From Thermomicrobiales bacterium (lineage in GTDB: Bacteria > Chloroflexota > Chloroflexia > Thermomicrobiales > UBA6265): a DNA stretch of 64,000 bases. The stretch lies in assembly GCA_042408955.1 (NCBI GenBank), contig JBHOQQ010000172.1, forward strand, positions 12,798-76,797, written 5' to 3'. Each line of letters starts with the position of its first letter. Position 1 is the first letter of the stretch. A program made the position numbers and the translations under genes. The notes beneath the pieces were generated by a model. The model worked only from the letters and a program-made list of their open reading frames with translations, had not been told where the DNA came from and searched no databases. Below are positions 3,092-63,900 of this stretch, piece after piece.

Positions 3092-3859
3092 GTGACCCCG
3101 CACGCTGATCGCCCGTCTCCTGATGAACTCGGCGCTCGCTCGTGCCGGATTCTTGTCGCGATTCCCACCTACAACGAGCGGGAGAACCTCCCGGCGCTCG
3201 TCCGGCGAATCCTCAATCTTGGGCCGGACTATGCGGTTATTATCGCCGACGACAACTCCCCAGATGGCACCGGCGACGTGGCTGACCGGCTTGCGGCAGA
3301 GCACGCGGGCCGAGTGGCCGTTGTGCACCGGCCCAGCAAGCAGGGAATCGGTCCGGCGTACCGAGCCGCATTCACTCTTGCCTTGACGACACCAGCCGAG
3401 ATCATCGCGCAAATGGATGCCGATCATTCGCATGATCCGCGCGACTTGCCGCGCCTGGTCGAAGCCCTTTCGTGCGCCGATCTCGCGCTTGGCTCGCGAT
3501 ATGTGGCCGGCGGTAGCACGCACGGCTGGCCATTCTACCGGAAGCTCATAAGCCGGCTCGGTGGGCTGTATGCTCGCCTGGTGTTGGGCGTGCCGGTCGC
3601 TGATCTGACGAGCGGGTTCAAGGCGTATCGAAGGCAGGCATTGGAGGCGATCGCCCTTGATGCCATACGCTCCGATGGGTATTGTTTCCAAATCGAAACC
3701 ACCTATCGTGCGCTCCAACGAGGCTGCCGCGTTGTGGAAGTCCCGATCACGTTTGTCGATCGTGTCGCCGGTAAGTCGAAATTGTCGCGAAGGATTGTGT
3801 TGGAAGCGATGGTCGTCGTTTGGCGGCTGCGCTGGTCAGCCCTCCGCCGCCGTCTGTGA
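3092..3859 (+). CDS. GT2 polyprenol-phosphate mannosyl/glycosyltransferase (Dpm1/Ppm1-like)
   Basis: ILVAIPTYNERENLPALV...VIIADDNSPDGTGDVA...VVHRPSKQGIGPAY...DADHSHDP...SGFKAYRR. GTG start lies 3 nt after the preceding stop. Confidence 0.8.
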   Translation: MTPHADRPSPDELGARSCRILVAIPTYNERENLPALVRRILNLGPDYAVIIADDNSPDGTGDVADRLAAEHAGRVAVVHRPSKQGIGPAYRAAFTLALTTPAEIIAQMDADHSHDPRDLPRLVEALSCADLALGSRYVAGGSTHGWPFYRKLISRLGGLYARLVLGVPVADLTSGFKAYRRQALEAIALDAIRSDGYCFQIETTYRALQRGCRVVEVPITFVDRVAGKSKLSRRIVLEAMVVVWRLRWSALRRRL

Positions 3860-5065
3860 TCTTTCCGGCTTGCGGTGCCGGTCCGAGAGCGCTCGCTCAA
3901 TTTCCTTGTCCAGTTCCTGGAGGAACCGCTGCTTGCTAAAGCGCGCCGCGTTGGCCATTGCGCGCTCCGGATCCCAGCGCCGTTGCGCGAATTCCATCAC
4001 CGTGTCCGCGAGACAGGAGGCCGTGGGACGCGAGAAGTGCAGCCCGGTCTCGCCGGGAATGATTGATTCGAGTGCGCCTCCGGCGCCATAGGCGATCACC
4101 GGGCGTCCAGCCGCTTGCGCCTCGATAGCGGTGAGTCCAAAGTCTTCGGCGCCTGGGAGAATCAGGGCACGGCACCGGCGCAGGTGCTCGATAACCGCCG
4201 CGTCATCCAGCGCGCCGACAAACTCGATCGTGGGGCCGGCCCGGCGACGCAGATCCTCCATGGCCCGGCCGGTACCGATGATCTTCAACGGCAATTTCAG
4301 GACATTAAAGGCGTCAATCGCCACGTCGACTCGTTTGTGGGGCACGAGCCGGGAAACGACCAGATACCAATCCTCAGGAGGCTCGATGCGCGCTGGCGCA
4401 AGACGCGAAGTATCCACCGGGGGATAGATGACGGTGGCCTCTCGGCCATACGCCTGAAGTATCCGCTGCCGGACATTGCAAGAATTCGCAATGTAGCGAT
4501 CGACGCGGCGCGCCGCCTGGGCATCACCCCGACGAAGCCAGGCAAAGAGAGGACCGGTCACCAGGCGCACAGGAGCTGGAATGCGGGCGGGCGCCAAGTA
4601 GTCAGGATCGCCATACAGAAACCGCGCGGGACTGTGACAATAACAGATCAGGACGGCATCGGGTCGGACGCGCACGTGATGCGACCAGGCGCTGGAGTCG
4701 GCAATAATGAGATCGAACGGCTCAAGCGCTCGGGCAAACCAGCGGAAAGCCGTTGGATAGAGCGGCAGCAGCAGCCGGTGATTTTGGCTTGCCCACGGCA
4801 CCTTCCCGAGGAAGCTCTCCTGAATGTCCCATTGCCGGTAGTGCGGCGGCAGCGCAGTAAGGTCGAGGAGCGACGTAAAGACGGGCGCGTCGGGGAATCG
4901 CTCGTGAAGCACGTCAAGGACGCGCTCAGCGCCACCGTACTGGGTAAGATAGTCATGGACGAGTGCGACGCGAGCCAATTCCCCAAGCTCCGCTCGGGCC
5001 GTGTTGCCGGCCACCCACTGCCCAGAAATCGGAGTATAGTCAGGATTGCGCGGGATGACTGACAT
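3836..5065 (-). CDS. GT4 (group 1) glycosyltransferase
   Basis: VALVHDYLTQYGGAERV near the N-terminus and the EX7E-type motif LPGAEDFGLTAIEAQAAGRPVIA. The 3' end overlaps the convergent GT2 gene by 24 nt. Start is either ATG 5065 or GTG 5083. Confidence 0.8.
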   Translation of the reverse strand: MSVIPRNPDYTPISGQWVAGNTARAELGELARVALVHDYLTQYGGAERVLDVLHERFPDAPVFTSLLDLTALPPHYRQWDIQESFLGKVPWASQNHRLLLPLYPTAFRWFARALEPFDLIIADSSAWSHHVRVRPDAVLICYCHSPARFLYGDPDYLAPARIPAPVRLVTGPLFAWLRRGDAQAARRVDRYIANSCNVRQRILQAYGREATVIYPPVDTSRLAPARIEPPEDWYLVVSRLVPHKRVDVAIDAFNVLKLPLKIIGTGRAMEDLRRRAGPTIEFVGALDDAAVIEHLRRCRALILPGAEDFGLTAIEAQAAGRPVIAYGAGGALESIIPGETGLHFSRPTASCLADTVMEFAQRRWDPERAMANAARFSKQRFLQELDKEIERALSDRHRKPERSQTAAEG

Positions 5066-6324: not shown

Positions 6325-6672
6325 CGCTGGCGCGGGATCCTTCGCGCCGAGGGTCGGAAGGTGTGACCGGTTGAACCGGGCGCAGGGTGCGCAACGCTCC
6401 TGCCGGATGCGCGCCTAGCGACCTGCTCCCTCGCTACCATCGGGGCAAGGCTCAGGCAAGGGAGCCGGCGAAAGCCGGCTGCTCTGCTGGGGGAGAGAGA
6501 TCCCGTGCTGCGCACTCCTGCGCGATCGCGAACAGAATGCCAGATCGAGCCCCCTTCAGGGGGATTCGTTGTGCTCAGCGCGGGGACTTTAGTCTTGCGC
6601 GATGCCGGAGGTGCGCCCGCACTTGCGCGGGCCGAAAGACCCGCGCTCAACATACAAATCGCAAGGCCCGCG
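6325..6672. repeat. Mosaic cluster of GC-rich stem-loop repeats, including an inverted copy (6489-6543) of the ~47-nt unit seen at 58638-58684
   Basis: Hairpins: GGCGCG-N8-CGCGCC (6329-6348), CCGGT-TGA-ACCGG (6367-6379), AGCCGGC-GAAA-GCCGGCT (6463-6480), CCCCC-TTCA-GGGGG (6550-6563), GCGCGGG-N8-CCCGCGC (6625-6646). The same modules recur at 37441-37680 and 58788-58877. Confidence 0.75.
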
Positions 6673-8261: not shown

Positions 8262-10004
8262 ATGAGCGATCAGGTCGGGGTGCCAGTTCCGGGCGTGCCA
8301 GGGGTGGTCGTCGAGCGGAATGTTCCGTGTCGTGTCCGCGATGGGACGGTGCTGAGGGCTGATGTCTACCGGCCAGCGGGCACAGGGCCGTTCCCCGTGA
8401 TTCTCATTCGCTTGCCATACGATAAGACGCAGGCAGAGAATGTCGCTTACAGTCACCCATCATGGTACGCCCGCCACGGATACATCGTTGTCTGCCAAGA
8501 CACCCGGGGCCGCTATGCATCGGAGGGTGAGTGGTACCCCTTCCTCCACGAGGCGGAGGATGGCTACGACACGATCGAATGGGCGGCACGGTTGCCAGGA
8601 GCAAATGGGAAGGTCGGGATGTATGGGTTCTCCTATGCTGGAGCGACCCAGCTACTCCCCGCTGTGCTCCGGCCGCCGAGTCTGGTGACAATCTGCCCAG
8701 TGATGACCGGGTCGCAATATTACGAGGGCTGGACCTACAACCAGGGGGCGTTTGCGCTGGCGTTTGCGGCCTCTTGGGCGCTCAGCCTGGGCATTAACAA
8801 CGCCCAGCGGCGCGGTGATGATGAGGCAGTGCGGTCTTATTCCACGGCGTTCGCCAGCGCTCTCTCTTGGGATTGGTATCTACCGCTGAAGGATTTCCCA
8901 CCGCTGCGTGGACCCGATACCGCGTATTTCTTCGACTGGCTCGCCCATCCCACCTACGACGAGTATTGGCGACGCTGGAGCATTGACGAAGACTACAGCC
9001 GCATCACGACTCCCGCGCTTCACATCGCTGGTTGGTATGACATCTTTCTCAGTGGCACCGTGGCCAACTTCAAGGGTTTGCGCCGCTACGCTGGCACCGA
9101 AGAGGCACGCCGGGGACAGAAGCTGATCATTGGCCCCTGGTATCACATTCCTTGGCGGCCATTGGTTGGCAACGTCTCGGACAACGCGTCACCGAGTGTC
9201 ATAGACGATTGGCAATTGGCCTGGTTCGATCAATTCTTGAAGGGGAATTGGACCGGCGTGCTGGACTCGCCCGTCACGGTGTTTATCCTCGGCGAGGACC
9301 GGTGGCATGATGTGGACGATTGGCCACCGCCGCAGGCAACGCCGACCGCTTGGTATGTCCATTCGCGCGGGCGCGCCAATTCCGTATTCGGTGATGGCAC
9401 CCTCTCTCTCGATCCGCCATTAGATGAGCCAGCCGACGTGTTTACCTACGATCCCACCGTTCCCAATCTGAGCCAAGGAGGGCATTCCTGCTGCTTCCCT
9501 TGGGTGGCACCCATGGGTCCGGCCGATCAGGCGCCGAGTGAGCAATGGAACAGTGTCCTGGTGTACACCAGCGACCCGCTGACCGAAGACCTCGTGCTGC
9601 TCGGCGACGTGACCGTCCGGGTATTTGCCGCGACCACTGCCGCTGACACCGACTGGACCGCGCGCCTGTGCCGCGTCGATCCCAGCGGTGTCTCGATCAA
9701 TCTTCAGGAAGGGATCGTCCGGGCGCGCTATCGTACGTCCACCGTCCGCGGCGAGCCGATTCAGCCCAATCAAGTCTACGAGTATGAGATTCTTCTTGGG
9801 CCTGTGGGTGTTCGCATTCCCGCGGGACACCGATTGCGCCTGACCATTTCGAGCAGCGATTTTCCCCAGTGGGATCGCAATTTGAACACCGGTGGGGAGC
9901 TTGGAGCCGAAGGACCATCGCGAGCCGTGGTGGCAACTCAGACCGTGCTCCACGATGCCGCACATCCCACGCGGGTCATCCTGCCGGTCGTCCGGGAGCT
10001 GTGA
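8262..10004 (+). CDS. CocE/NonD family hydrolase (S15 X-Pro dipeptidyl-peptidase-like)
   Basis: VRDGTVLRADVYRP...PVILIRLPYDK..., nucleophile motif GMYGFSYAG, and a C-terminal jelly-roll segment ending LTISSSDFPQWDRNLNTG. The ORF opens at 7899; ATG 8262 is preceded by GGGAG. Confidence 0.85.
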   Translation: MSDQVGVPVPGVPGVVVERNVPCRVRDGTVLRADVYRPAGTGPFPVILIRLPYDKTQAENVAYSHPSWYARHGYIVVCQDTRGRYASEGEWYPFLHEAEDGYDTIEWAARLPGANGKVGMYGFSYAGATQLLPAVLRPPSLVTICPVMTGSQYYEGWTYNQGAFALAFAASWALSLGINNAQRRGDDEAVRSYSTAFASALSWDWYLPLKDFPPLRGPDTAYFFDWLAHPTYDEYWRRWSIDEDYSRITTPALHIAGWYDIFLSGTVANFKGLRRYAGTEEARRGQKLIIGPWYHIPWRPLVGNVSDNASPSVIDDWQLAWFDQFLKGNWTGVLDSPVTVFILGEDRWHDVDDWPPPQATPTAWYVHSRGRANSVFGDGTLSLDPPLDEPADVFTYDPTVPNLSQGGHSCCFPWVAPMGPADQAPSEQWNSVLVYTSDPLTEDLVLLGDVTVRVFAATTAADTDWTARLCRVDPSGVSINLQEGIVRARYRTSTVRGEPIQPNQVYEYEILLGPVGVRIPAGHRLRLTISSSDFPQWDRNLNTGGELGAEGPSRAVVATQTVLHDAAHPTRVILPVVREL

Positions 10005-10942
10005 TGACGATGCGAGTTGCGCGCAGTATCTTGTCGGTTCCAGCCTCATCGCTGCGCATGATCGAAAAAGCGCTTGCGAGCGAGGCAGATATCGTCTTTC
10101 TCGATCTTGAGGATGCCGTTGCTCCGGCAGAGAAGGCCGCGGCGCGGGCGAATGTGATCGCGGCGATGCGGGATCTGGACTGGCGGGGAAGGCCGCGCGT
10201 GTACCGGATCAACGGCCTCGACACTCCCTTTTGCTATCGCGACCTCATCGAGATCATCGAGGGTAGTGAGGGGAGGGCCGATCTCGTCATCGTGCCGAAG
10301 GTAGGCCGTCCTGAAGATGTCGTCGTGGTTGCAACCCTACTGGGTCAACTCGAAATGGCGACCGGCACGGCGCGGCGGATTGGCATCGAAGCGCAGATAG
10401 AATCGGCCTCGGGCCTCCTCGCCTGCGAGCGCATCGCAACGGCTGGTGATCGCCTGGAAGCGTTGATATTTGGTCCTGGGGATTTCGCGGCCACCATTGG
10501 TATGCCAAGCAGTGCGATCGGCACTCCTGATGATTGGGATGCCCGGTATCCAGCACACCGCTGGCACTACGCGATGGCGCGGATTGTGGTCGCGGCTCGG
10601 GCAGGAGGGTTGCGCGCCATTGATGGGCCGTATGCGGATATTCGTGATCTAGACGGGCTGAGGCGCTCCTGTGAACTCGCGCGTGCGCTGGGCTTTGATG
10701 GCAAGTGGTGTATCCACCCGGCGCAGATCCCCATTGTCAACGAGGTGTTCACGCCGACCGAGGCGGAGCAAGCGTGGGCACGGCGCGTCCTCGCTGCTTA
10801 CGAAGAGGCGACGGCCGCGGGACGTGGCGCCATCACGGTTGATGGGAAGATGATCGATGCCGCGAACGTGCGCATGGCCCAGCGGACGCTTGCCATGGCC
10901 AGTGGCAGGGATGTGGCTGGAGAGCAAGTCTCCAACGCTTGA
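10004..10942 (+). CDS. HpcH/HpaI aldolase / citrate-lyase beta (CitE)-like acyl-CoA lyase
   Basis: RSILSVPASSLRMIEKALASEADIVFLDLEDAVAP...RINGLDTPFCYRDL...VIVPKV. The ATG overlaps the upstream TGA (GTGATGA). Confidence 0.85.
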   Translation: MTMRVARSILSVPASSLRMIEKALASEADIVFLDLEDAVAPAEKAAARANVIAAMRDLDWRGRPRVYRINGLDTPFCYRDLIEIIEGSEGRADLVIVPKVGRPEDVVVVATLLGQLEMATGTARRIGIEAQIESASGLLACERIATAGDRLEALIFGPGDFAATIGMPSSAIGTPDDWDARYPAHRWHYAMARIVVAARAGGLRAIDGPYADIRDLDGLRRSCELARALGFDGKWCIHPAQIPIVNEVFTPTEAEQAWARRVLAAYEEATAAGRGAITVDGKMIDAANVRMAQRTLAMASGRDVAGEQVSNA

Positions 10943-10948
10943 GACGGA

Positions 10949-10988
10949 ATGCAACACCGGGCGCCCGTAACGGCGCCCGGTGTTGCAT
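10949..10988. terminator. Bidirectional stem-loop between convergent genes
   Basis: A perfect 17-bp stem: ATGCAACACCGGGCGCC (10949-10965) pairs with GGCGCCCGGTGTTGCAT (10972-10988), with a 6-nt loop. It lies between the CitE-like stop (10942) and the rpmE stop (11006). Confidence 0.7.
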
Positions 10989-28676: not shown

Positions 28677-28879
28677 GTGCTGCCGCTTTAGCGCTCAAGC
28701 GTCTTGCCGAAGGGCTGCTCCCGAGCCAGGTTCCCTGCCCGACTTGACTGGGGATGGCCGCCGCTGGCCATGGCGCACGGCATCATCACTCATCACCAGG
28801 CTGCTCCGCTCGGAATGACGCAAGCGGCCGGTGCCGGTGGCTCCCTGCTGCCGGGCAGGCTATCGTGTGATGATCTCCC

Positions 28880-34802: not shown

Positions 34803-35657
34803 GTGAAAGTTCTGATCTCAGCGGACATGGAAGGAACGTGCGGCGTTGTCTCCTGGGTGCAGGTGATGCCTCCGGAGGAAGGCGAGCACCCATCGTCGCA
34901 AGTCGAGTATGACCGGGCGCGCTTGCGCATGACGCGCGAGGTGAACGCGGCGATTGAGGGGGCAATAGCTGGTGGCGCGGATGAAGTCATCGTCAACGAC
35001 AGCCACGACGGGATGCGGAACCTCATTCCGGAGGAGCTCCATCCCGCCTGCCGGTGGATCAGCGGCAATGACAAGCCGCTCGGCATGATGCAGGGGGTAG
35101 ATCTTGAGGGAATCGGGGCTGTGCTCTACAAGGGATACCATGCGAAGGCGGGCACACCGAACGCTCCGCTTGCCCATACCTGGTCAGGTTGGATCAACGA
35201 CGTTCGCATCAATGGTCGCTCGACGGGAGAGTTTGGCATCAACGCGGCGATTGCCGGGCACTTCGGCGTGCCGGTGGTGTTTGTCAGCGGGGATGCGCGG
35301 GCGGTGGAGCAAACGCGCGCGTGGATCGGCGACCATGTCACTGGCATCGCGGTGAAAGAGGGACTGAGCACCTTCGCCGCGCTTCACCTGCATCCGGCGC
35401 GGGCGCAGGAGCTGATTCGGCAAGGGGCAGAAGCTGCGGTGCGGGGCGCCAGGCAGGCAAAGCCGTGGGTGCTGCCTGGTGGGAGCGTCGTTGAAGTTGA
35501 ATTCGACCACCAAGCGCGAGCCGATCAGGCATCGCTGGTGCCAGGTGTCCGGCGAGCAGGGGAGCGGTGCGTGGCGTTCGAGCCAGCGGATGGCGTGGAT
35601 CTCATCCGCATCTTCCGTGCGGTCGCCAAGACCGCCGCGATTCGCATGTCGCCGTAG
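34803..35657 (+). CDS. M55-family D-aminopeptidase (Bacillus DppA-like)
   Basis: MKVLISADMEGTCGVVSW...LMTREVNAAIEGA...VIVNDSHDGMRN...GYHAKAGT...VVFVSGD. GTG start. Confidence 0.85.
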   Translation: MKVLISADMEGTCGVVSWVQVMPPEEGEHPSSQVEYDRARLRMTREVNAAIEGAIAGGADEVIVNDSHDGMRNLIPEELHPACRWISGNDKPLGMMQGVDLEGIGAVLYKGYHAKAGTPNAPLAHTWSGWINDVRINGRSTGEFGINAAIAGHFGVPVVFVSGDARAVEQTRAWIGDHVTGIAVKEGLSTFAALHLHPARAQELIRQGAEAAVRGARQAKPWVLPGGSVVEVEFDHQARADQASLVPGVRRAGERCVAFEPADGVDLIRIFRAVAKTAAIRMSP

Positions 35658-35750
35658 CCACGTGTAACGTGCCCGATGACCTGGGCAGCCGGTACCGACT
35701 GCGATGACGCGGCTGCTTCTGCGGTTGCGAGCCGCTCGGTCCGGCAGTGA

Positions 35751-35801
35751 CTTGAGCGATTCGTCGGCTTCGCCACTCCCGCACTGGCGCGAACGGAATG
35801 G
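35751..35801 (-). repeat. Inverted copy of the ~47-nt intergenic repeat unit
   Basis: The minus strand reads CCATTCCGTTCGCGCCAGTGCGGGAGTGGCGAAGCCGACGAATCGCTC. Compare GTCATTCCGTTCGCGATAGCGCGGGAGTGCGAAGCGAGGAATCTCTC at 58638-58684. It lies in a 366-nt gap between convergent genes. Confidence 0.75.
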
Positions 35802-36023
35802 CGGTGCTGTGTGTCGCGAGAAAAGGATGCCGGGGGCTTCCGCGCTCTCCCGCCTCCCCGCCGGTGAGCGTCACCCGTCGATTGCCGGGCCGGCGGATGG
35901 CGAAATCCCGCGGGCAGGTTCCGTGACCCATCACACGGGGACCGCTGCGTTGCGGCGAGGGTTGCAACGATGGCTTGCGCCAGGCGGATGCCGCGGGGTG
36001 CGCGATCGTGACCGGATGGGACG

Positions 36024-37202
36024 TCACGCATCAATGGGGATCGACGCGCTGCTTTCGGCAGTCGCTTCCGGTTCGGACGTTGTCTCATGCGGCACCGAGG
36101 TGGGCGACGGCTCCGGCGTGGCAGTCGCAGTTGGCTCGGAACTGGCATCTGCCTCTTCCTCGACGACCACGGTGTCAGCCGGCGCGGAGGGCTCGTCAGC
36201 GGGCTCAGCTATCTCGGTTGCCTCTGTTGCGGTTGGCTCGGCCGTGACCTCTTCAACAGCCGTCTCATTCGCAGGCTCGTCTTCTTGGATTTCTGCCGCA
36301 TCGGGCTCTGTTTGACCTGGCTGGCTGGCAGCCGCAATTTGCATCTCTTCCACTGGGGTCGCTGCGCTGTCAACGACGTCGTCCAGTGAGGGAGACTCGG
36401 TTGCTGGCGCCGCTGGGCTCGGCGAGGCCAGCATCGTCCCGTCGGGCTGCTCGTCCGGGGAGGCTGTTTCTGGCTGCACGTCGGGAGCCGCGGTCGCTTC
36501 CGCAGATGCTGATGGTGTCGCCTCGATCGCTATGTCCGGCGTGGGCGGGGTCGTCTCCAATGTTGGCTCGGGGGACGTAGGGGCCGTCGGCGTCTCGGTG
36601 GGTTGGGTGGACACCCAATCCGGCGGAACCGCGTCGGCACCGGTTGCGGAGCCACCGATGGCGTCTCCGCCGCGAGCCGCCTGGCCGTCACTGCCGGTTG
36701 CCGAGACGCCAGTCACCGACGCGCCACGCACCGTCGTCTGCGTGATGCTCGACGCCTGCAGCGTGACGTCGATTTCAACGCCGACCGTCTGTCCATAGAC
36801 GGCCGATGGCACGCCGTTCCTTGGGATAAGCTCGACCTGCATTGGTACGTACCGCCCATTGCGGATCGGCAGGCTCACGCGCGCCGTGACGGTCAATGAG
36901 CCGTCGGTGGCGACGTCGTGATCCCCTTGGACCCAGCGAAACGCCTCGCCAAATCCGTTGAAGCCATCATCGACATAGACAAGCTCGTTGATAGTGCCGC
37001 GCGGAACGATCAGGTCAATCATGATCGGTCCGATGACGTCTGGAAGATCGTCGATCGGGATCGCGACCCAGATCTGGAGATCTTCGCCATTGACCCGGAC
37101 AATGGGATCCGATCGGCACCAACCCTTGCCGGCGCTGACCGGGATGCCTGTCAGCCAGAGGCTCAGCAGGATCACCAAGGTGAAAACGCCAGAGCGGCGC
37201 AT
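36024..37202 (-). CDS. Hypothetical secreted protein with ~220-aa acidic Pro/Thr/Ala/Glu-rich tail
   Basis: Signal peptide MRRSGVFTLVILLSLWLTGIPVSAG, a ~150-aa globular region, then low-complexity ...TQPTETPTAPTSPEPTLETTPPTPD...EEEADASSEPTATATPEPSP. TAAGGAGG sits upstream of the ATG. Confidence 0.6.
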   Translation of the reverse strand: MRRSGVFTLVILLSLWLTGIPVSAGKGWCRSDPIVRVNGEDLQIWVAIPIDDLPDVIGPIMIDLIVPRGTINELVYVDDGFNGFGEAFRWVQGDHDVATDGSLTVTARVSLPIRNGRYVPMQVELIPRNGVPSAVYGQTVGVEIDVTLQASSITQTTVRGASVTGVSATGSDGQAARGGDAIGGSATGADAVPPDWVSTQPTETPTAPTSPEPTLETTPPTPDIAIEATPSASAEATAAPDVQPETASPDEQPDGTMLASPSPAAPATESPSLDDVVDSAATPVEEMQIAAASQPGQTEPDAAEIQEDEPANETAVEEVTAEPTATEATEIAEPADEPSAPADTVVVEEEADASSEPTATATPEPSPTSVPHETTSEPEATAESSASIPIDA

Positions 37203-37440
37203 GGAGTGTCCTCCTTATAAACGATGATGAATGTAAGCGTGGTCGTCTTCGTTCGAACAGATTTTGTGCAAGGTGCGATGGCACGGTGCTTTGCAAACTC
37301 AACGGTTCCCAAGGCGATCATAGGGGCCTGGTGACATGCCGTCACTGACAAAAGCATGACTTTGGTCCTGTGCAAAAGGACAACAGTCGCGCGAGCACCT
37401 GAGACGAGGGGATGTGGATGACACGAGCGGAGACACACGC

Positions 37441-37680
37441 GATGTCAATGTCGCCCTTGGCGCGGGCCTCAAGACCCGCGTTCAAGCTACGAAGCCCCCA
37501 TAAGGTGGCTAGTGCGACATGATGGGTGGCAAGATCAGCCGGCTTTCGCCGGCTTTCTAGACTCAGCGCGGGGCGAACGTCCCCGCGCGATGGGACTGAG
37601 CCGTGTCCCGAGCAACGCGAGGAAGCCGGCCGTTAGACCCGCGCGGGAGGCGGCGTATCTGCCAATGGGCTCCAGCCCAT
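37441..37680. repeat. Mosaic cluster of GC-rich stem-loop repeats (same modules as 6325-6672 and 58788-58877)
   Basis: CGCGGG-N8-CCCGCG (37461-37480), AGCCGGC-TTTC-GCCGGCT (37537-37554), GCGCGGGG-N7-CCCCGCGC (37566-37588), GTCCCGAGCAACGCGAGGAAG (37605-37625), CCCGCGCGGG (37638-37647), ATGGGCT-CC-AGCCCAT (37665-37680). Confidence 0.75.
37665..37680 (-). terminator. Candidate stem-loop downstream of the amino-acid ABC operon
   Basis: ATGGGCT/AGCCCAT 7-bp stem about 38 nt after the ATPase stop (37718). No U-tract. Confidence 0.35.
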
Positions 37681-37717
37681 GAGGAAAGACACCGCGCTCA
37701 GTTCTGATTTCCCCGGG

Positions 37718-56837: not shown

Positions 56838-57917
56838 GTGACTCATCAACGCATTCCTGAATCTCCTCCGGCTCTCAAGTGCACGGGTATCGTCAAGCGA
56901 TATGGCGCCGTGACCGCCGTTGCCGGCGTAGATCTCGTTGCCGAGCGTAGCGAGGTGGTTGCACTACTTGGCCCGTCCGGCTGCGGAAAGACCACCACGC
57001 TGCGCCTCATCGCCGGGTTTGAAGATCTCGATGCCGGAACGATTGAGATTGGCGGCCGCATCGTCGCCACGCCAGATTGGCGCGAGCCGCCGGAGCGCCG
57101 CCGTGTCGGCATGGTGTTTCAGGATGGAGCGCTCTTTCCTCATCTCTCGGTCTTCAAGAACGTGGCGTTCGGTCTACCTCGAAGTGAGGACCGTGCGGCG
57201 AAAGTCCGCGCTGCGCTGGAGATGGTCGGTCTGACCGGCTACGAGGACCGCATGCCCTTCGAGCTTTCCGGAGGTCAGCAACAGCGTGTGGCACTCGCCC
57301 GCGCGCTCGCGCCATCCCCGGAGGTCATTCTGCTCGATGAGCCGTTCTCAAGCCTGGACGCCGAGCTACGCGCTAGCGTCCGGGCGGAAGTGCGCCAGAT
57401 TCTCTCGGAAGCCGGCGCGACGGCGATCCTCGTGACCCACGATCAAGAAGAGGCGCTCAGCATCTCGGATCGCGTGGCGGTCATGTGGCAGGGCCGCATC
57501 GTGCAGCAAGCGTCGCCAGAAGAGCTCTATCACCGGCCGATTAGCAGGGAAATCGCGGTGTTCGTGGGCGACGCCCAGTTCATCCCTGGCGAGGGCATGG
57601 GGCGCCGTGTGGTGACAGAGCTCGGCGAGCTGCCTGTGCATGGCACCGCGCACGGCCCCGTTGACGTCATGCTCCGTCCGGAGGCGCTCCGGCTGATTCC
57701 AGCGACAGATGGGCAAGAGCCCAACGCGACCGTCCTGACGCGCCTCTTTTACGGACATGACCAACTCATGACCGTGCGCCTTGACACCGGGCGCATCGTG
57801 AAAGCGCGACTAGGCACCTATGGCGGCATCCGGCCTGGCGACCGCGTCCATGTCAGCGTTCGTGGCGCGGCGCTTACCTTCCCGCGTGAGGATGGTTCAT
57901 GCGCGTCGAAATCGTGA
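56838..57917 (+). CDS. Fe(3+)/polyamine-type ABC transporter ATP-binding protein (FbpC-like)
   Basis: [43 protein letters not shown], and a C-terminal TOBE-like region. Confidence 0.9.
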   Translation: MTHQRIPESPPALKCTGIVKRYGAVTAVAGVDLVAERSEVVALLGPSGCGKTTTLRLIAGFEDLDAGTIEIGGRIVATPDWREPPERRRVGMVFQDGALFPHLSVFKNVAFGLPRSEDRAAKVRAALEMVGLTGYEDRMPFELSGGQQQRVALARALAPSPEVILLDEPFSSLDAELRASVRAEVRQILSEAGATAILVTHDQEEALSISDRVAVMWQGRIVQQASPEELYHRPISREIAVFVGDAQFIPGEGMGRRVVTELGELPVHGTAHGPVDVMLRPEALRLIPATDGQEPNATVLTRLFYGHDQLMTVRLDTGRIVKARLGTYGGIRPGDRVHVSVRGAALTFPREDGSCASKS

Positions 57918-58399
57918 GCGAGAGCCCCGAGCAAACGCGGGCACTCGGCGCTGCTATCGGCCGGCGCCTTCGCCCGGGGGATGTCGTGCTGCTGCACGGC
58001 GATCTCGGTGCCGGAAAAACCACGCTCACCCAAGGAATTGCCGAAGGGCTTGGCATCCGCGATTACGTGCAGAGCCCTACCTTCACGCTCGTGGCAGAGC
58101 ACCCTGGCCGCACCGCCAGCGGCGATCCGATCGTTCTCTATCACTTGGATCTGTACCGCCTGAGTGGGGCTCACGATCTGGAAACCTTCGGCTACGACGA
58201 GTTCCTCGCTCCAGTGGACGGCATTACCGTTATTGAATGGCCGGAGCGCGCGGAAGGATGGTTGCCGGACGCCTATTTGCTCGTGCACCTGGAAGTGGCC
58301 GGACCAGAGCGGCGCCGGATCACGGTCGAGGCGATCCCCAGCGTCGGGCATTTAGCAGATCTCGTTCGTGACCTCTCCGCCGCGCACGCCACACCCTAG
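57899..58399 (+). CDS. tsaE: tRNA t6A37 biosynthesis ATPase TsaE (YjeE)
   Basis: ...TRALGAAIGRRLRPGDVVLLHGDLGAGKTTLTQGIAEGLG...VQSPTFTLVAEH...LYHLDLYRL. Overlaps the preceding gene by 19 nt. Confidence 0.9.
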   Translation: MRVEIVSESPEQTRALGAAIGRRLRPGDVVLLHGDLGAGKTTLTQGIAEGLGIRDYVQSPTFTLVAEHPGRTASGDPIVLYHLDLYRLSGAHDLETFGYDEFLAPVDGITVIEWPERAEGWLPDAYLLVHLEVAGPERRRITVEAIPSVGHLADLVRDLSAAHATP

Positions 58400-58439
58400 C
58401 GCGAAGTTCGTGGGGCTAGAAATTACAGGCTGAGGCCAC

Positions 58440-58930
58440 CAAGGCGGGCTTGCTACCCGTGTGCGGCGTCAGATTCCTGTCTTCGCGCTCATCGCTCGCT
58501 TTGCTCGGGACACGGCTCACCACACAGACAAAGCCTCTCAAGGGGGCTGAAAGGCGGACGCATCCGCCCGGCATCCCTCCCCGGCATTCGTTCGCGACGG
58601 CGCGGGCATGCTCCCTGCAGCATCTCGTGCATGCTCCGTCATTCCGTTCGCGATAGCGCGGGAGTGCGAAGCGAGGAATCTCTCGCGTCCCTGCCGCGCA
58701 GCTCGGCAGCCCGAGGCAGCAGCCGCAGTCTTGTCATCCCGTTCGCGATCGTGCGGGCGTGCAGAGCGAGAAAGCTCTCAGCCGTCCAGCCGGCTTTCGC
58801 CAGCTTCGTGGTGGCAGTGCGGAGACGTTAAGCCCCGCGCGATGAGGCTAAGCTTTGTCCCGAGCGAAGCGAGGATGCAAATCTTTAAGGCCCGAGCGAA
58901 GGGCGGACCCAGAATTGGTTGGTTGAACGC
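58440..58930. repeat. Largest mosaic repeat cluster; three tandem copies of the ~47-nt unit plus shared hairpin modules
   Basis: Units at 58583-58611 (partial), 58638-58684 (GTCATTCCGTTCGCGATAGCGCGGGAGTGCGAAGCGAGGAATCTCTC) and 58733-58779 (GTCATCCCGTTCGCGATCGTGCGGGCGTGCAGAGCGAGAAAGCTCTC). Degenerate AGCCGGC-TTTC-GCCAGCT at 58788-58805. GTCCCGAGCGAAGCGAGGATG at 58857-58877. Confidence 0.8.
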
Positions 58931-58937
58931 GGTCACC

Positions 58938-60266
58938 TTAGCGCTGGGCAATGGGCTGACTGCGCTGCCGGATGATGCTCGCGACGGCATCGGCCGCGGC
59001 TTGGAGTGCTGCCTGGGCCGTTTGCTGCCCAGCAAGCGCGCGCTGGATCTCGGTGCCCAGCGCGTGCGTGACCGCGGCGTAGTCGGGTGTGATGAAGCTG
59101 TTGTATGGATGGCTCGCTTGCTCTGCGACCACAGCCGCGTGCGGCGCGAATTGCTGCACTTCCGGATCAGCGAGCACGGAACGCCGAATTGGAAGCCACG
59201 ACGTGGCGAGCCCCTGCTGCTTTTGGATTTCCGGACTGAGATTCCACGCGACGAATCGCCAGGCAAGTTTGGGATGACTCGATGCCACTGCGATGGTCCA
59301 GGCATCGGCACCGTCAATTGACGCGCTTCCGGCGGGGCCGGCCGGGAGCATCGCAACTCCCAGGCTCCCTGTGATGCGGGAGGCAGCCGGGTCTTGCGCC
59401 GTCTGCCACATGAAGGGCCAATTCATCATCATTGATGCCTGACCAGACATAAAGAGAGCCGTCGCGTCGTTGATTGTTCGACTTTGCAAGGCGTCGGGAT
59501 GGGTGGACGGCAAGAGGTCGAGCATGCATCGCAGCGCCGCGATTCCCTCTTCCGAATTGAACGCCGGAAGGCCGCCCTCGTCGTACATGGTGCCTCCGGC
59601 CTGCTGAAGAAATGCCATGAAGTATGAGGCGACTCCGCCGATTCCTTCAGCCGTGCCATAATTCTGCACCCAACCGTATCGACCCTGGCGCGTGAGCGCG
59701 GCTGCCGCTTCTTTGAGCGCTTCCCAGGTTGTTGGCGGCTCCCGCACGCCTGCTTCTTCGAAGTGCTCCCGGTTATAAAACAAGATCAGCAGGGACAAGG
59801 TGAATGGAACGCCGAAGACGCGTCCATTCCAGGTCGTTGCATTGAACGCAGATGGTGGCAAGTCCGTGCGCAGCTCGGCCGGGATGCGGTCATCCAAAGG
59901 GGCCAAATAGCGAGCAAATTCTGGAACCCACCCGGCCATGTAGATGACATCGTAGATTGGATCGCTCCCGGCAACATCATTCGCGATGGCATTGTGGAGC
60001 TCTGACCACCGGCGCGCATCGAACGAAACGTGGGCATCGTTCGCTTCTTTCCACCGGGCCAATGCATCCAGCGCAAACGCGGCGACCCCTGGCGGAGCAG
60101 GATCCGGCGGTAAAGGGGCAAGCACCCTGAGCCGCGTCGTGGCGCTGGCAGCACGCCATCCTGGCCCCAAGAGCCCACTTGCCAGCGTTGCACCTCCCAG
60201 GGCCATGGCTCTGCAGATACCGCGACGGCTCGCGCGCTGGCACCACCACGACTGACCCGCCTTCAT
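58938..60266 (-). CDS. Orphan ABC substrate-binding protein, family 1 (sugar-type), Tat-type signal
   Basis: MKAGQSWWCQRASRRGICRAMALGGATLASG; the body resembles extracellular solute-binding family 1 (...MMNWPFMW...). No adjacent permease or ATPase. Start is ATG 60266 or 60287. Confidence 0.7.
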   Translation of the reverse strand: MKAGQSWWCQRASRRGICRAMALGGATLASGLLGPGWRAASATTRLRVLAPLPPDPAPPGVAAFALDALARWKEANDAHVSFDARRWSELHNAIANDVAGSDPIYDVIYMAGWVPEFARYLAPLDDRIPAELRTDLPPSAFNATTWNGRVFGVPFTLSLLILFYNREHFEEAGVREPPTTWEALKEAAAALTRQGRYGWVQNYGTAEGIGGVASYFMAFLQQAGGTMYDEGGLPAFNSEEGIAALRCMLDLLPSTHPDALQSRTINDATALFMSGQASMMMNWPFMWQTAQDPAASRITGSLGVAMLPAGPAGSASIDGADAWTIAVASSHPKLAWRFVAWNLSPEIQKQQGLATSWLPIRRSVLADPEVQQFAPHAAVVAEQASHPYNSFITPDYAAVTHALGTEIQRALAGQQTAQAALQAAADAVASIIRQRSQPIAQR

Positions 60267-60419
60267 CACCCACTGGCTCCCCACCACGGTTCACGTCAAT
60301 GGCTACCGCAATACCACCCTCCCCACCCAGCTGCGGGGAGTGAGAGGGTGGTTGTCCCGATAATCGTTGCGGAGGAGGAGTTCGTCAATGCGTGACGAGG
60401 GGCATCGCTGCCACGGCGA

Positions 60420-60839
60420 CTACCAACGCAGCAGTCGCGTCGGCCGGATGCGGATTGCTTGGGAATAGTCCGCTACCATCGCGCTCGGCTCCCACTGCAT
60501 TTCCCGCAGAAGCGCAGCGTATTTGTCGAAATAGGGACCGAGGGGCAGCGTCGAGGCTGGCTCCGGCAACAGCGTGGCCTCGCCTTCAAGGATGATGACA
60601 TCGTGGCCGTCGTTCGTGTTGTCGAGGGCGACGCTCACGTGAGGTTGAGCCCGTAGGTTACGGATTTTCTGCGTGTTGGGTTGACTCAGCACGAGGAGAG
60701 ATTCACCATCCCAAAAGAACCAGACGGGAACAATGTGCGGCCTGCCATCGGGACGAACCGACGTGAACCACAAGATGAGGTCGCGACGCAAGCGCTCATC
60801 CACATGTGCCTGGCCTGGCGTGTGATCCAGAATCGGCAT
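60420..60839 (-). CDS. Pyridoxamine-5'-phosphate-oxidase-fold (PPOX/F420- or FMN-binding) family protein
   Basis: ...ILWFTSVRPDGRPHIVPVWFFWDGESLLVLSQPNTQKIRNLRAQPHVSVALD...VIILEGEATL. Start is ATG 60839 or 60878. Confidence 0.7.
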   Translation of the reverse strand: MPILDHTPGQAHVDERLRRDLILWFTSVRPDGRPHIVPVWFFWDGESLLVLSQPNTQKIRNLRAQPHVSVALDNTNDGHDVIILEGEATLLPEPASTLPLGPYFDKYAALLREMQWEPSAMVADYSQAIRIRPTRLLRW

Positions 60840-60967
60840 GGATAGCCCCCGTACGAGATTGCGGGTTTCGTGAGCCATAACCGCTGAGCGGGCGCCCAAA
60901 GCCATCCGCCCCGCGATCTCCCTCCCGGGCGGATGGGAAAGCGACGGGTAACTCAAGAGATAGGTGC

Positions 60968-63900
60968 TTAGCTTCCCCAGTCGACGTCGTAAAACCCGCT
61001 GCCGTCGCCAGACATTTCGATGGCGCAGCCATCGTAGCCGCCGAATCCACCTTGTCCGCTCGTCGCGGTGCCATTGACGGCTACAGCACAGCCGCCATCG
61101 CCGAAATCGCCGCCATTGCCGCCCGTGGCGTTGCCGTTGATTGCGGTTGCATCGCCGCCGCGTCCGCCCGATGCGCTGCCATCGGACACGCCAGGATTGC
61201 CGCCGTTCCCGCCGGTGGCGTTCCCGTTGATGGCAGTCGCGTTGCCCCCGTTGCCGCCGCTGCCGGTGGTGGAGCCGCTACTCGCGGCAGTGGCTCCGGC
61301 GCCGCCAGTCGCGACTCCGCCATTGCCGCCGTTGCCGCCCGTGGCGTTGCCGTTGACCGCGTAGGCGTCGCCGCCCGCGCCGCCATTCCCGCCAACCGCT
61401 TCGGCGCCGGTCGCGTTACCGCCGTCACCGCCATTGCCGCCCGTGGCATCGCCCCCGTTCGCCTCGGCGTTACCGCCGCGCCCACCATCGCCGCCGACCG
61501 CGGAGCCTCCGAACGCTGCACCGCCGTCGCCACCGTTGCCACCGACCGCGTTCCCACCAAGAATGACACCCTCACCACCGGTGGCATTGCCGCCGGCACC
61601 ACCCGCGCCCCCGCGGGTGGTATCCGTGACATCACCGGAGAAGGTGCACGAGGCACCGATGACCGGAGCCGGTCCTGCGCCAAGCGCAGACACGAGCCCG
61701 TTGAGATCGCAGGAACTTGTCAGCGTGTTGGCGTCGAATGCGCCGCCGCCATTGCCGCCGTGGCCACCCGTGGCATTTCCACCGATCAGCCCAAAGCCGC
61801 CCTTAGCGTTCCCACCGGTGCCGCCGTTCCCGCCAATGGTGAGGTCGCCGCCATTGTTCCCGGCCGATAGCGTGCCGGAGTAGCCAATGGTGTAGACACC
61901 AATATCGATGGCGCTGCCGCCCCCGGTACCGTCTCCTCCGAAGGCATCACCGCCGTTGCCAAGCTGGCCCTCTTCCACCACGCCAAGGAAAACGTTGCCC
62001 GAGGTGGCGATTCCATTGGCCGAACCGCCCTGCGTGGCGACGCCGTCAGCCGCTGTGCCCGGCGTGCCAACGCCGTTCGAGGCGTTCCCATTCTGGTGAG
62101 GTGTGGTGATGATGTTCGAGGTGGCAGTTCCAGGCGTGTCTCCTGTGCCACCGCTGACCGCTCCGGGGTTGACAGTGCCTGACGCCGCTCCGGCGCTGCC
62201 TGTGCCACCGACACCCGCGCCTGCGGTTCCCCGCGCGCCGCCGGTGCCAGCACCGCCAGTGCCAGTTCCGGCCGTCACCGTGCCGAGGGTAAAAGTGCCC
62301 TCGGTGTATGAGCCACCGGTGCCCCCGTCCCCGCCAATCGCATCGCCGCCCGCGCCACCATCACCACCGCGCGTGACATCGTTGGCGCTGCCCGACGCAG
62401 CGATACTCCCGCTCCCGCCGCTGACCTGAACGCCGATAGTAATGGCCGAGCCGCCGGCACCGCCATTTCCGCCGCGAGCGGTCCCACCATTGCCGCCGTC
62501 GCCGCCAATCGCATCGCCGGCATAGATGTTACCGCCCGTGGCATTGCCGCCCTGGCCGAAACCTCCAGTCCCCGCGCCGCCAATCGCGTTCCCGCCGGTG
62601 CCTGGCCCACCGGATCCGTCGCCGCCGATGTTTCCATTGGCGACCAGATTTACCGCCCCATTGCCGCCAGTGCTGCCCGTGCCTGTCGCATTTCCACCGA
62701 GACCAAACCCGGCTGCAACATTGCCGGACGCACTCCCGCCGGTGCCGTTCCCGCCAACGCCGCGTCCAGCGGTACCTGCGTTGCCTCCGGTTCCAGCGCC
62801 ACCTTGCCCGGCGCCGCCAGCCACATCACCGCCAGTCACATCCGCCTGATTGGCGAGACCGCCGGTTCCCCCAATGCCGCCGAAGCCGTTCCCGCCGGTG
62901 CCGCCGGTGCCCCCAATCACAATGTTGCCACCGACCGTGACGATCGTGACTGTACCATCGACTGTCTTGAGCGACACGGCAATATCCTTGGCGAGTCCGC
63001 CGGTGCCACCCGTGCCACCCTGGCCAGTGCCGCCGGTGCCACCCGCACCCCCGAAGGCGTCACCACCGTAGCTATCGCCACCGGTAGCGTTGCCGCCGGT
63101 GCCTGTGCCGCCTATTCCCGCGCCACCGAGCGAATCACCGCCGATTCCCGCCCCGCCACTGCCGTCTCCGCCGGCGTTGGCGTTATGCACGGTAGTCGCG
63201 GTGCCATTGCCGCCGATGCTGCTGGCACCGATGGCGAGACCACCCTGCCCGGTGCCACCGGTGGTATTGCCGCTCGCGTTGCCGCCGGTGCCATCACCAC
63301 CTAGGCCGTTGCCGCCATTCCCAGCGTTTCCGCCAATCCCCGCGCCGCCAGTGCCATTTCCGCCAGCAACATCACCGCCGAAGACATCGCCAGGGTTGGC
63401 TTCTCCGCCAGTGCCACCCGTCCCGCCGATACCGTCGCCACCAGTGCCACCATTCCCACCGAGGACGATGTTGCTCGCCTCGACGGAGATGGTCACGTCA
63501 CCGGTGTGATCTTTCACTGTCACCGTGACGGCCGTGGCATTACCACCGGCGCCACCTGCTCCGCCGTTGCCGGTGCCTCCTGTGCCGCCGTCGCCGCCGG
63601 TCGCGTTGCCGCCGATCGTCGTGCCGCCAGTCGCATAACCACCCCAGCCATCGCCGCCCATTCCGGCGCCGCCGAGTGAGTCACCGCCAGCGCCGGTGCC
63701 ACCCCGGCCACCGCCGCCTGCGTTGCCGCCGCCGGTGGTCGCACTCACTCCGTCACCAGCGGCTGCTCCCGCGCCGCTCACGTTTCCGCCGGTCGCCGTA
63801 CCACCGGTGGTATTGCCAGAGGCAGCGCCTCCCCGGCCGTCACCACCGATACCCGTGCCACCGTTGCCCGCCAGGCCGCCACGGCCCACGCCGCCTGTCC

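Follow-up and report, generated by a model that had tools for sequence, protein, structure and literature searches.

Repetitive extragenic palindromes (REPs) with a CGTC or TGTC tag were described by Di Nocera, De Gregorio & Rocco (2013; PMC3733652). Their stems start with A-T pairs, their tails are short, they form head-to-head dimers, and they show no association with a transposase (PMC3733652). The superfamily includes dRS3 of Neisseria, in which the repeats are clustered in mosaic intergenic regions, and RPE-4 and RPE-6 of Rickettsia (PMC3733652). NTS (CGTCATTCCCGCGMAVGCGGGAATCYRG) is an oriented form that is bound and cut as single-stranded DNA (ssDNA) by SsnA, a 94-aa GIY-YIG nuclease (Chenal et al., 2025; PMC11893778), and the ssnA gene is typically flanked by NTS-type motifs across phyla (PMC11893778). 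Further, Thermomicrobium roseum possesses GTAG-23 REPs that are clustered in blocks (PMC3733652). Here we analyzed a repeat cluster from a bacterium of the same order, Thermomicrobiales (phylum Chloroflexota), that fills a 538-nt spacer at positions 58400-58937 of a 64,000-nt stretch of contig JBHOQQ010000172.1 (hereafter, the window). The original prediction, made without database searches, regarded the cluster as a "MITE/REP-like or structured-RNA" family that could not be named with confidence. One family can be named, the CGTC-tagged REPs, alias NTS or Ssn-related motifs. We consider it probable, at roughly 60%, that the interval is a NIME/BIME-like mosaic of decayed CGTC-REP/NTS-like arms and short GC-rich companion hairpins, with a putative Ssn-type ssDNA mechanism. 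Neither this variant nor the phylum Chloroflexota has previously been described for CGTC-REP/NTS repeats.

The spacer extends from the stop codon of tsaE (57899-58399, + strand; Pfam TsaE, 1.3e-38) to that of a converging gene for a solute-binding protein (SBP; SBP_bac_1, 58938-60287, - strand), and over its whole length (58400-58937, no strand assigned) it constitutes the mosaic repeat cluster c4. A unit of ~47 nt at 58638-58684 had been predicted to recur at 58733-58779, partially around 58583-58611 and, inverted, near 35751-35801 and 6489-6543, and both blastn and a covariance model confirmed this recurrence. When the spacer was compared with the window using blastn, the unit matched 58733-58779 with 83% identity, and a partial copy at 58581-58611 and inverted copies at 35807-35712 (96 nt, 73%) and 6544-6478 (68 nt, 78%) were detected, with E-values for the unit copies of 2e-8 to 9e-11. 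The covariance model, which was built from six copies and run with filters off, identified exactly five copies at three loci in the window (39-74 bits; E 1e-9 to 4e-20), with no other hit above noise. Three of the five reside in c4, all on the + strand: A1 (58637-58684; 73.8 bits), which is the best preserved A-type arm; A2 (58732-58779; 61 bits), in which the tag is TGTC and the 3' stem is degenerate; and A3 (58576-58630; 39 bits, E 1.4e-9), which is partial and degenerate. They had been described as three tandem copies; we found two complete copies and a partial one, all oriented alike and spaced by 56 and 95 nt, that do not form an array. A tandem or CRISPR-like array was rejected, as Tandem Repeats Finder detected no array in the spacer and the spacing is irregular.

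The copy A1 consists of a CGTC tag, ATTCC, an inserted palindrome of 18-20 nt (GTTCGCGATAGCGCGGGA) and GCGAAGCGA-GGAAT-CTCTC. Its tag reads cCGTCATTCC and that of A2 reads tTGTCATCCC, and the tags of A4, A5 and A6 are degenerate (CGCC, TGGC and GGTC, respectively). The window contains no intact dimer, and its copies are diverged singletons.

Intact elements were found in L078, a metagenomic contig with an M55 peptidase 97% identical to that encoded at 34803-35657 of the window. The two elements, X1 (3829-3977) and X2 (4214-4346), are palindromic, 133-149 nt long and composed of a left arm, a centre of ~70 nt and a right arm in inverted orientation; the fold of each is a single long hairpin (z = -5.2; 0/200 shuffles as good), and the tags of both are CGTCATCCC. 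The left arm of X2 is GTCATCCC-GAGCGAAGCGA-GGGATCTCTC. The left arm of X1 is identical except for an 18-nt insertion, GTTCGCGATAGCGCGGGA, directly after GTCATCCC, and this inserted arm is the 47-nt unit. Further, the window copy A4 aligns to an uninserted L078 arm, with the same insertion. These alignments therefore identify the 47-nt unit as one arm of a palindromic dimer. A sister arm, the D-type, occurs in the window as GTGTCCC-GAGCGAAGCGA-GGA. The first two stem positions are A-T (ATTCC...GGAAT or ATCCC...GGGAT) in A1, X1, X2 and the copies from IMG/VR contigs described below. An Rfam search of the canonical element returned only generic long-hairpin miRNA models, below threshold. As a separate observation, L078 3961-4017 contains 2.8 tandem copies of a 20-nt unit (GCTGCGCTCGGAATGACAGG) that corresponds to the head of a repeat arm, and this repetition suggests slippage at arm ends.

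The canonical arm has nine stem positions, two of them G.A/A.G, with a 3-nt loop and a CTCTC tail, and the core of the A-type arm is 29 nt long. Note that the DNA mini-hairpin formed by d(GCGAAGC) is very stable and that GA/GA flanking GCGAAGC can form tandem sheared pairs. An arm thus opens with a (C/T)GTC tag, which is followed by an ATTCC stem, a mini-hairpin as the core (usually GA-GCGAAGC-GA), a GGAAT stem and a CTCTC tail, and the full element is a head-to-head dimer of ~135-150 nt of which the 47-nt unit is a single arm. In the A-type arm, the extra 18-nt palindrome after CGTCATTCC gives an NTS-like inner hairpin.

When the frame of A1, cCGTCATTCC...GGAATCTCTC, was compared with NTS, it was identical at 9/9 positions of CGTCATTCC and 6/6 positions of GGAATC. 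An unbiased scan of the window with the NTS consensus placed A1 and A4 as the top tiles (score 25), and A1 reached a z of ~9 when the canonical arm was used as the query. The third-best window hit for the canonical arm is an arm-head relic (GCGTCATTCCGAGCGGAGC) at 28800-28830 (- strand), which lies in another convergent spacer (28677-28879).

The same frame was found beside a candidate partner gene in IMG/VR contigs that are unrelated to the window. The contig L086 encodes a 96-aa single-domain GIY-YIG protein (Pfam, 1.4e-15) that is 60% identical by tblastn to a locus of Neisseria gonorrhoeae; the gene is flanked by classical NTS-like arms, and the contig also holds a head-to-head dimer with a CTCTC tail. 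The arm-gene-arm layout was observed again in L124, L125 and L129, the last with nested cores in its arms, and was seen only in these four contigs. Phage contigs of low GC in IMG/VR encode more distant Ssn homologs (33-45% identity); these were not flanked by arms and were set aside.

In IMG/VR, the exact 23-mer CATTCCGAGCGAAGCGAGGAATC occurs 14 times, against about none by chance, in agreement with the earlier remark that strings of this type are widespread. These sites are usually located inside perfect palindromes of 85-100 nt, one of which (L066 742-844) folds at z = -10.6. A search of IMG/VR for the frame GTCATTCC-N9-39-GGAATCTCTC gave 60 matches with 39 distinct cores, mostly GA-hairpin-GA; the frame is conserved and the core variable, nested cores are common, and the cores AGCGAAGGCT and GGCGAACGCC fit a stem of 8 bp with a 4-nt loop. 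Head-to-head dimers were present in L066, L071, L073 and L086. Elements with the GA core occur in Thermomicrobiales and in environmental IMG/VR contigs with a GC content of 57-67%; an Acido-Lenti-1 RNA is present in one of these contigs.

The window itself, at 58-70% G+C, holds five A-type arms and about five D-type arms or remnants, all extragenic. The best named relatives of its proteins are encoded in "Thermomicrobiales bacterium" metagenome assemblies. From five copies in 64 kb a high genomic copy number had been predicted, which the searches did not bear out: three of the five copies belong to one cluster, and a metagenome scan with the 22-base core detected one true further copy (L053), also in a convergent spacer and downstream of a gene, plus one chance hit. 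The same 22-base core gave no copy in IMG/VR, and a scan of 185,579 GTDB species genomes with CATTCCGTTCGCGNNNNNGCGGG gave 47 hits, all by chance, none of which extended into the unit. A search of the literature for the string GAGCGAAGCGAGG and its reverse complement returned nothing relevant.

The junction between tsaE and the SBP gene is syntenic in relatives, and its length varies. The spacer is 538 nt in the window, 204-205 nt in L003, L004 and L055 (TsaE in the same 90% cluster), 181 nt in L001 and L002 (TsaE 87% identical) and 42 nt in L057-L061 (ABC ATPase 88% identical). Orthologous sequence is confined to ~120 nt of the left side and ~25 nt of the right side, and the relatives lack the ~390 nt in which modules A, B, C and D are located. 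With spacers of 42, 181 and 205 nt against 538 nt, the cluster is therefore a recent, lineage-specific accretion, and the mosaic changes rapidly. Likewise, the length of the spacer that follows the M55 peptidase gene is 77 nt in L080-83, 301 nt in L079, 366 nt in the window and ~1050 nt in L078. The insertion polymorphism that the original prediction had proposed to look for was thus found, in that spacer lengths vary among relatives and the part with the modules is absent there. Two observations concern the same junction. In the 87% relative, a different palindrome with the same motif, GAGATCCCTCGCTC-18 nt-GAGCGAGGGATCTC, occupies L001 10582-10643 of the spacer. In a 96%-identical relative, the Logan contig L054 stops 131 nt past tsaE (1146-1276), just after a D-type arm; such an end would fit a break of the assembly at the repeats.

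The remainder of c4 is composed of companion modules. On its left side, an arm 3'-half remnant (GCGCGAAGACAGGAATCTGAC; 58462-58494, - strand) belongs to the part of the spacer that is conserved in close relatives (91-94% identical in L003/L004) and is followed by a reversed D-type arm (GTGTCCCGAGCAAAGCGAG; 58491-58519, - strand), which is also conserved in relatives and is 96% identical to 37621-37597. Small companion hairpins (AGCCTCTCAAGGGGGCT; GGCGGACGCATCCGCC) occupy 58530-58575, with no strand assigned. In the stretch after A1, the hairpin CTGCCG-CGCAGCT-CGGCAG (58691-58709, + strand) shows homology to the centre of the full-length elements in L078. Further modules on the + strand are the B hairpin AGCCGGC-TTTC-GCCAGCT (58788-58805; three window sites against 0.12 expected), a remnant of the GC-rich C-type hairpin that ends in CCCCGCGCGATG (58819-58846), a D-type arm (CTAAGCTTTGTCCC-GAGCGAAGCGA-GGATG; 58848-58877) and a degenerate second D-like motif (GGCCCGAGCGAAGGGCGG; 58889-58906).

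Flanking modules had been predicted to be shared with other clusters, and we confirmed both their positions and an excess over shuffle expectation (AGCCGGCTTTCGCCGGCT, 3 sites against 0.12 expected; GTCCCGAGCGAAGCGAGG, 6 against 0.23); the 120-nt composite 58787-58906 matches 37536-37653 with an E of 1.5e-14. Cluster c1 (6424-6649, no strand assigned; convergent spacer 6325-6672) contains a D-like module (6424-6455, -), B (6463-6480, -), the A5 arm (6489-6547, -), an F hairpin (6548-6566), C (6576-6603, +) and E (6625-6649, +). Cluster c2 (35712-35808, - strand; convergent spacer 35658-36023) consists of the A4 arm and part of the central region of an element. Cluster c3 (37460-37653, + strand; spacer 37203-37717) contains E (37460-37484), B (37537-37554), C (37560-37590), a D-type arm (37596-37625) and an E-half. 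All four clusters are located downstream of genes, c1, c2 and c4 in convergent spacers and c3 after an ABC ATPase gene. The module order A-B-[C]-D-E' is the same in c1, c3 and c4, and the mosaic is therefore in part a longer composite repeat in differing states of decay.

A mobile-element gene between c2 and c3 was considered and rejected: the ORF (open reading frame) 36024-37202 encodes a secreted PT/E-rich protein and no transposase. The protein, which is encoded on the - strand, has a signal peptide and a long low-complexity tail rich in Pro, Thr, Glu and Ala, and it matches no Pfam family. The position of c2 and c3 on either side of this ORF recalls the NTS clusters that flank surface-protein genes in Neisseria. 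Upstream of the same gene, the non-coding segment 37304-37414 is 77% identical to L079 12553-12663 and 61% identical in L080/L081; it contains a hairpin, GTCCTGTGCAAAAGGAC, has no Rfam hit and may be a leader or regulatory element.

According to the mechanism that we favor, the repeats would act as DNA, and an intact arm would fold into a hairpin when single-stranded, as during replication, repair or uptake. A putative cognate nuclease, a small GIY-YIG protein homologous to Ssn, would recognize the hairpin and cut just upstream of it. Spread and clustering might then proceed through nuclease- or recombination-driven events rather than classical transposition. For the Thermomicrobiales host, both the partnership with an Ssn-type nuclease and this mode of spread are inferred. 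The copies in the window, which are diverged singletons and lack partner arms, most likely represent inert relics, and any present-day effects are likely incidental, such as hairpins at transcript 3' ends or substrates for recombination and indels.

Several results weigh against assigning the cluster to the CGTC-REP/NTS repeats. The score of 25 for A1 and A4 in the NTS scan exceeds that of the best coding-region tiles (24) by one point. The published SRM (Ssn-related motif) pattern, HGTCWYN(0-2)YYVSBRHN(0-5)WNVSBRGN(0-2)RNCYNB, had 0 hits across the window, L078 and the remaining relatives, and it matched neither the canonical arm nor A1, whereas a control NTS sequence was matched. The described CGTC families have perfect stems of 8-9 bp, loops of 4-5 nt and a CCA tail; here the tail is CTCTC and the core is either GA-GCGAAGC-GA, which has a 3-nt loop and a tandem G.A mismatch, or a nested palindrome. 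Those families are present at high copy, whereas the copy number here appears low in public data. No GIY-YIG gene was detected in the window or across Thermomicrobiales loci that total ~120 kb, in a screen, not a proof, that used approximate queries and the L086 protein, and no ssnA homolog flanked by GA-core arms was found. Finally, ORFs with HUH-type motifs that resemble REP-associated tyrosine transposases (RAYTs) or Y1 transposases were found in three of the IMG/VR contigs with canonical GTCATTCC...GGAATC elements (L064 1167-1817, L065 1311-1661 and L101 3744-4364, all on the - strand).

The last result bears on the alternative that survives best, although we consider it unlikely, namely that the arms are singlets of GTAG-type REPs and the L...R dimers are REPINs, mobilized by a RAYT/TIRYT (Y1/HUH) enzyme encoded elsewhere in the genome. 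The architecture, with inverted palindrome doublets that form long hairpins beside decayed singlets, is the same, and T. roseum, of the same order, has block-clustered GTAG-23 REPs (PMC3733652). However, the tag is CGTC/TGTC, a class reported to lack tyrosine transposases (PMC3733652), and the hairpins carry no GTAG tag; a distant CTAC, 5-9 nt away, was seen for the E modules only. Further, the RAYT-like ORFs of L064, L065 and L101 have no arms at their flanks, and the nearest arm is >1 kb away. The search for a cognate RAYT that had been proposed earlier gave a negative result, as tblastn with E. coli RayT detected nothing in the window or in the Thermomicrobiales loci, and the window contains no copy of the palindrome that the T. 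roseum REPs target, CCGSSCC(n3-4)GGSSCGG.

The elements could instead be classical MITEs (miniature inverted-repeat transposable elements), that is, non-autonomous derivatives of an insertion sequence (IS) with terminal inverted repeats of ~30 nt that are moved by a DDE transposase. Full-length elements of 100-150 nt with long inverted terminal arms and a variable centre would fit this explanation, as would the varying presence of the repeats between close relatives. On the other hand, no target-site duplication was seen at X1, X2 and the IMG/VR copies when these were inspected by eye (a small sample with no clean empty site). No IS with such ends was found, and blastn of the spacer, the L078 spacer and the canonical element against 72,556 plasmids gave no match. 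Moreover, the individual arms are hairpins in their own right and their cores vary, a combination typical of REPs but not of the ends of an IS. We regard the MITE origin as improbable. The general MITE/REP-like character proposed in the original prediction stands, given that the repeats are non-coding, modular and located in convergent or 3' spacers, that they differ between relatives and that the unit is the arm of a dimer.

The other half of that proposal, a structured RNA, found no support. As a functional RNA, the modules would be a small RNA, stabilizers in 3' untranslated regions or terminators of the two genes that converge here. Each of the four clusters, like the L053 copy, does lie downstream of at least one gene, the inner stem tolerates G.T pairs on the tagged strand, and REPs elsewhere are known to influence mRNA stability (PMC3733652). 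However, an Rfam search of the window found no family at the gathering or a permissive threshold, even with E up to 10, and no tRNA or tmRNA relics were detected there. The hairpin proposed for each unit fared poorly: across six copies, the pairing of ATTCC with GGAAT and TTCGC with GCGAA was satisfied in 72% of cells, an alternative inner palindrome (CATTCC/GGAGTG and CGCG/CGCG) fitted better, with 88%, and neither scheme exhibited covariation. Single units folded no better than shuffles (z -0.1 to -1.1), and the fold of the whole spacer was not significant (z -1.6 on the + strand and -2.0 on the - strand). Intrinsic terminators and promoters were at chance level, and the only terminator-like site, against 0.7 expected, falls within the small companion hairpins at 58530-58575, on the - strand. 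Further, the spacer is not conserved, and its element-bearing part is absent from relatives at ~90% identity. A functional RNA is accordingly a poor candidate, and the weakest explanation, a degraded protein-coding gene or chance similarity in GC-rich DNA, has a negligible probability: long ORFs do cross the spacer (58450-58656, 58631-58831 and 58608-59321), but Pfam matches were obtained for the genes on both sides and for none of the internal ORFs, in agreement with the prediction that the spacer holds no credible ORF, and the modules recur in both orientations in four spacers (E down to 1e-14; covariance model 4e-20) with motif counts far above shuffle expectation, so that the Pfam, blastn and covariance-model results effectively refute it.

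Outside the repeat clusters, some features of the window were recorded. Synteny is lost just past the SBP gene when window 58938-60956 is compared with L001 and L057: in the window and L003/L004 the genes that follow are a PNPOx-like gene and that of a giant repeat protein, and in L001 and L057-61 they are two permease genes and tsaD/tsaB-type genes. The giant protein corresponds in the window to a 973-aa ORF (60968-63889, - strand) with degenerate Gly-rich repeats (GGxGx-like), a 15-nt periodicity and no Pfam match; its counterpart at the same position in L003/L004 has 1317 aa. The longest perfect hairpin of the window by far, unrelated to the repeat family, has a 17-bp stem and a 6-nt loop (ATGCAACACCGGGCGCC-cgtaac-GGCGCCCGGTGTTGCAT) and lies at 10949-10988, 7 nt past the ORF 9869-10942 (+ strand).

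Mosaics such as this one are an ordinary kind of intergenic repeat in bacteria, and the direct importance of the cluster is modest, as it looks like inert debris. Placing these repeats of Chloroflexota in the CGTC-REP/NTS superfamily nevertheless connects them to a family whose function has only recently been tied to a site-specific ssDNA nuclease, and the published SRM pattern misses the widespread GA-core variant. For annotation, the repeats account for long "empty" spacers and spurious ORFs (SVIPFAIARECEARNLS-type translations) in metagenome-assembled genomes of Thermomicrobiales, and for likely assembly breaks such as the end of L054 inside the orthologous spacer. A more speculative idea, which we hold to be doubtful, is that GTCATTCC, GA, a variable mini-hairpin (typically GCGAAGC), GA and GGAATCTCTC define a distinct cross-phylum branch of ssDNA hairpin repeats, missed by the SRM pattern and served by putative Ssn-like or other nucleases. 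If this were true, the nuclease specificity would read a tandem sheared-G.A platform and would tolerate or exploit nested insertions such as the 18-nt insert; the branch would also extend the system to Chloroflexota and supply new pairs of enzyme and site for the ssDNA-nuclease toolbox.

The repeats can finally be compared with the known systems. With the GTAG-23 REPs of T. roseum, which we compared by description only, they share the order of the host and clustering in blocks rather than even dispersal, but the T. roseum family has a GTAG tag and is inserted in CCGSSCC(n3-4)GGSSCGG palindromes, which were not present here. Like REPINs (Bertels & Rainey; Nunvar et al.), they comprise inverted palindrome doublets that form a long hairpin, with singlets as decayed remnants; unlike REPINs, they carry CGTC and no GTAG, and no Y1 transposase was found. 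They resemble the intergenic mosaic elements of Neisseria (NIMEs) and the BIMEs of E. coli in that REP-type hairpins alternate with short modules in variable order and the mosaics vary in size between strains, whereas the module sequences differ and, relative to BIMEs, no RAYT was found. The resemblance to CGTC-tagged REPs comprises the terminal CGTC/TGTC tag, the A-T start of the stem (ATTCC...GGAAT), the short unpaired tail, the prevalence of head-to-head dimers with the tags outside and spacers of 20-100 nt (here in L078 and IMG/VR), the extragenic location with a preference for convergent spacers and, in some species, clustering with other repeats; Chloroflexota is not among the five phyla reported for that class. 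Compared with NTS and SsnA, the repeats differ in the unmatched SRM pattern and in the lack of an ssnA homolog in the window or the relatives' loci. They share with NTS and the Ssn-related motifs the identical frame CGTCATTCC...GGAATC, a directional hairpin and clusters that adjoin genes, and in L086 arms with the same frame and a CTCTC tail co-occur with an arm-flanked ssnA homolog.

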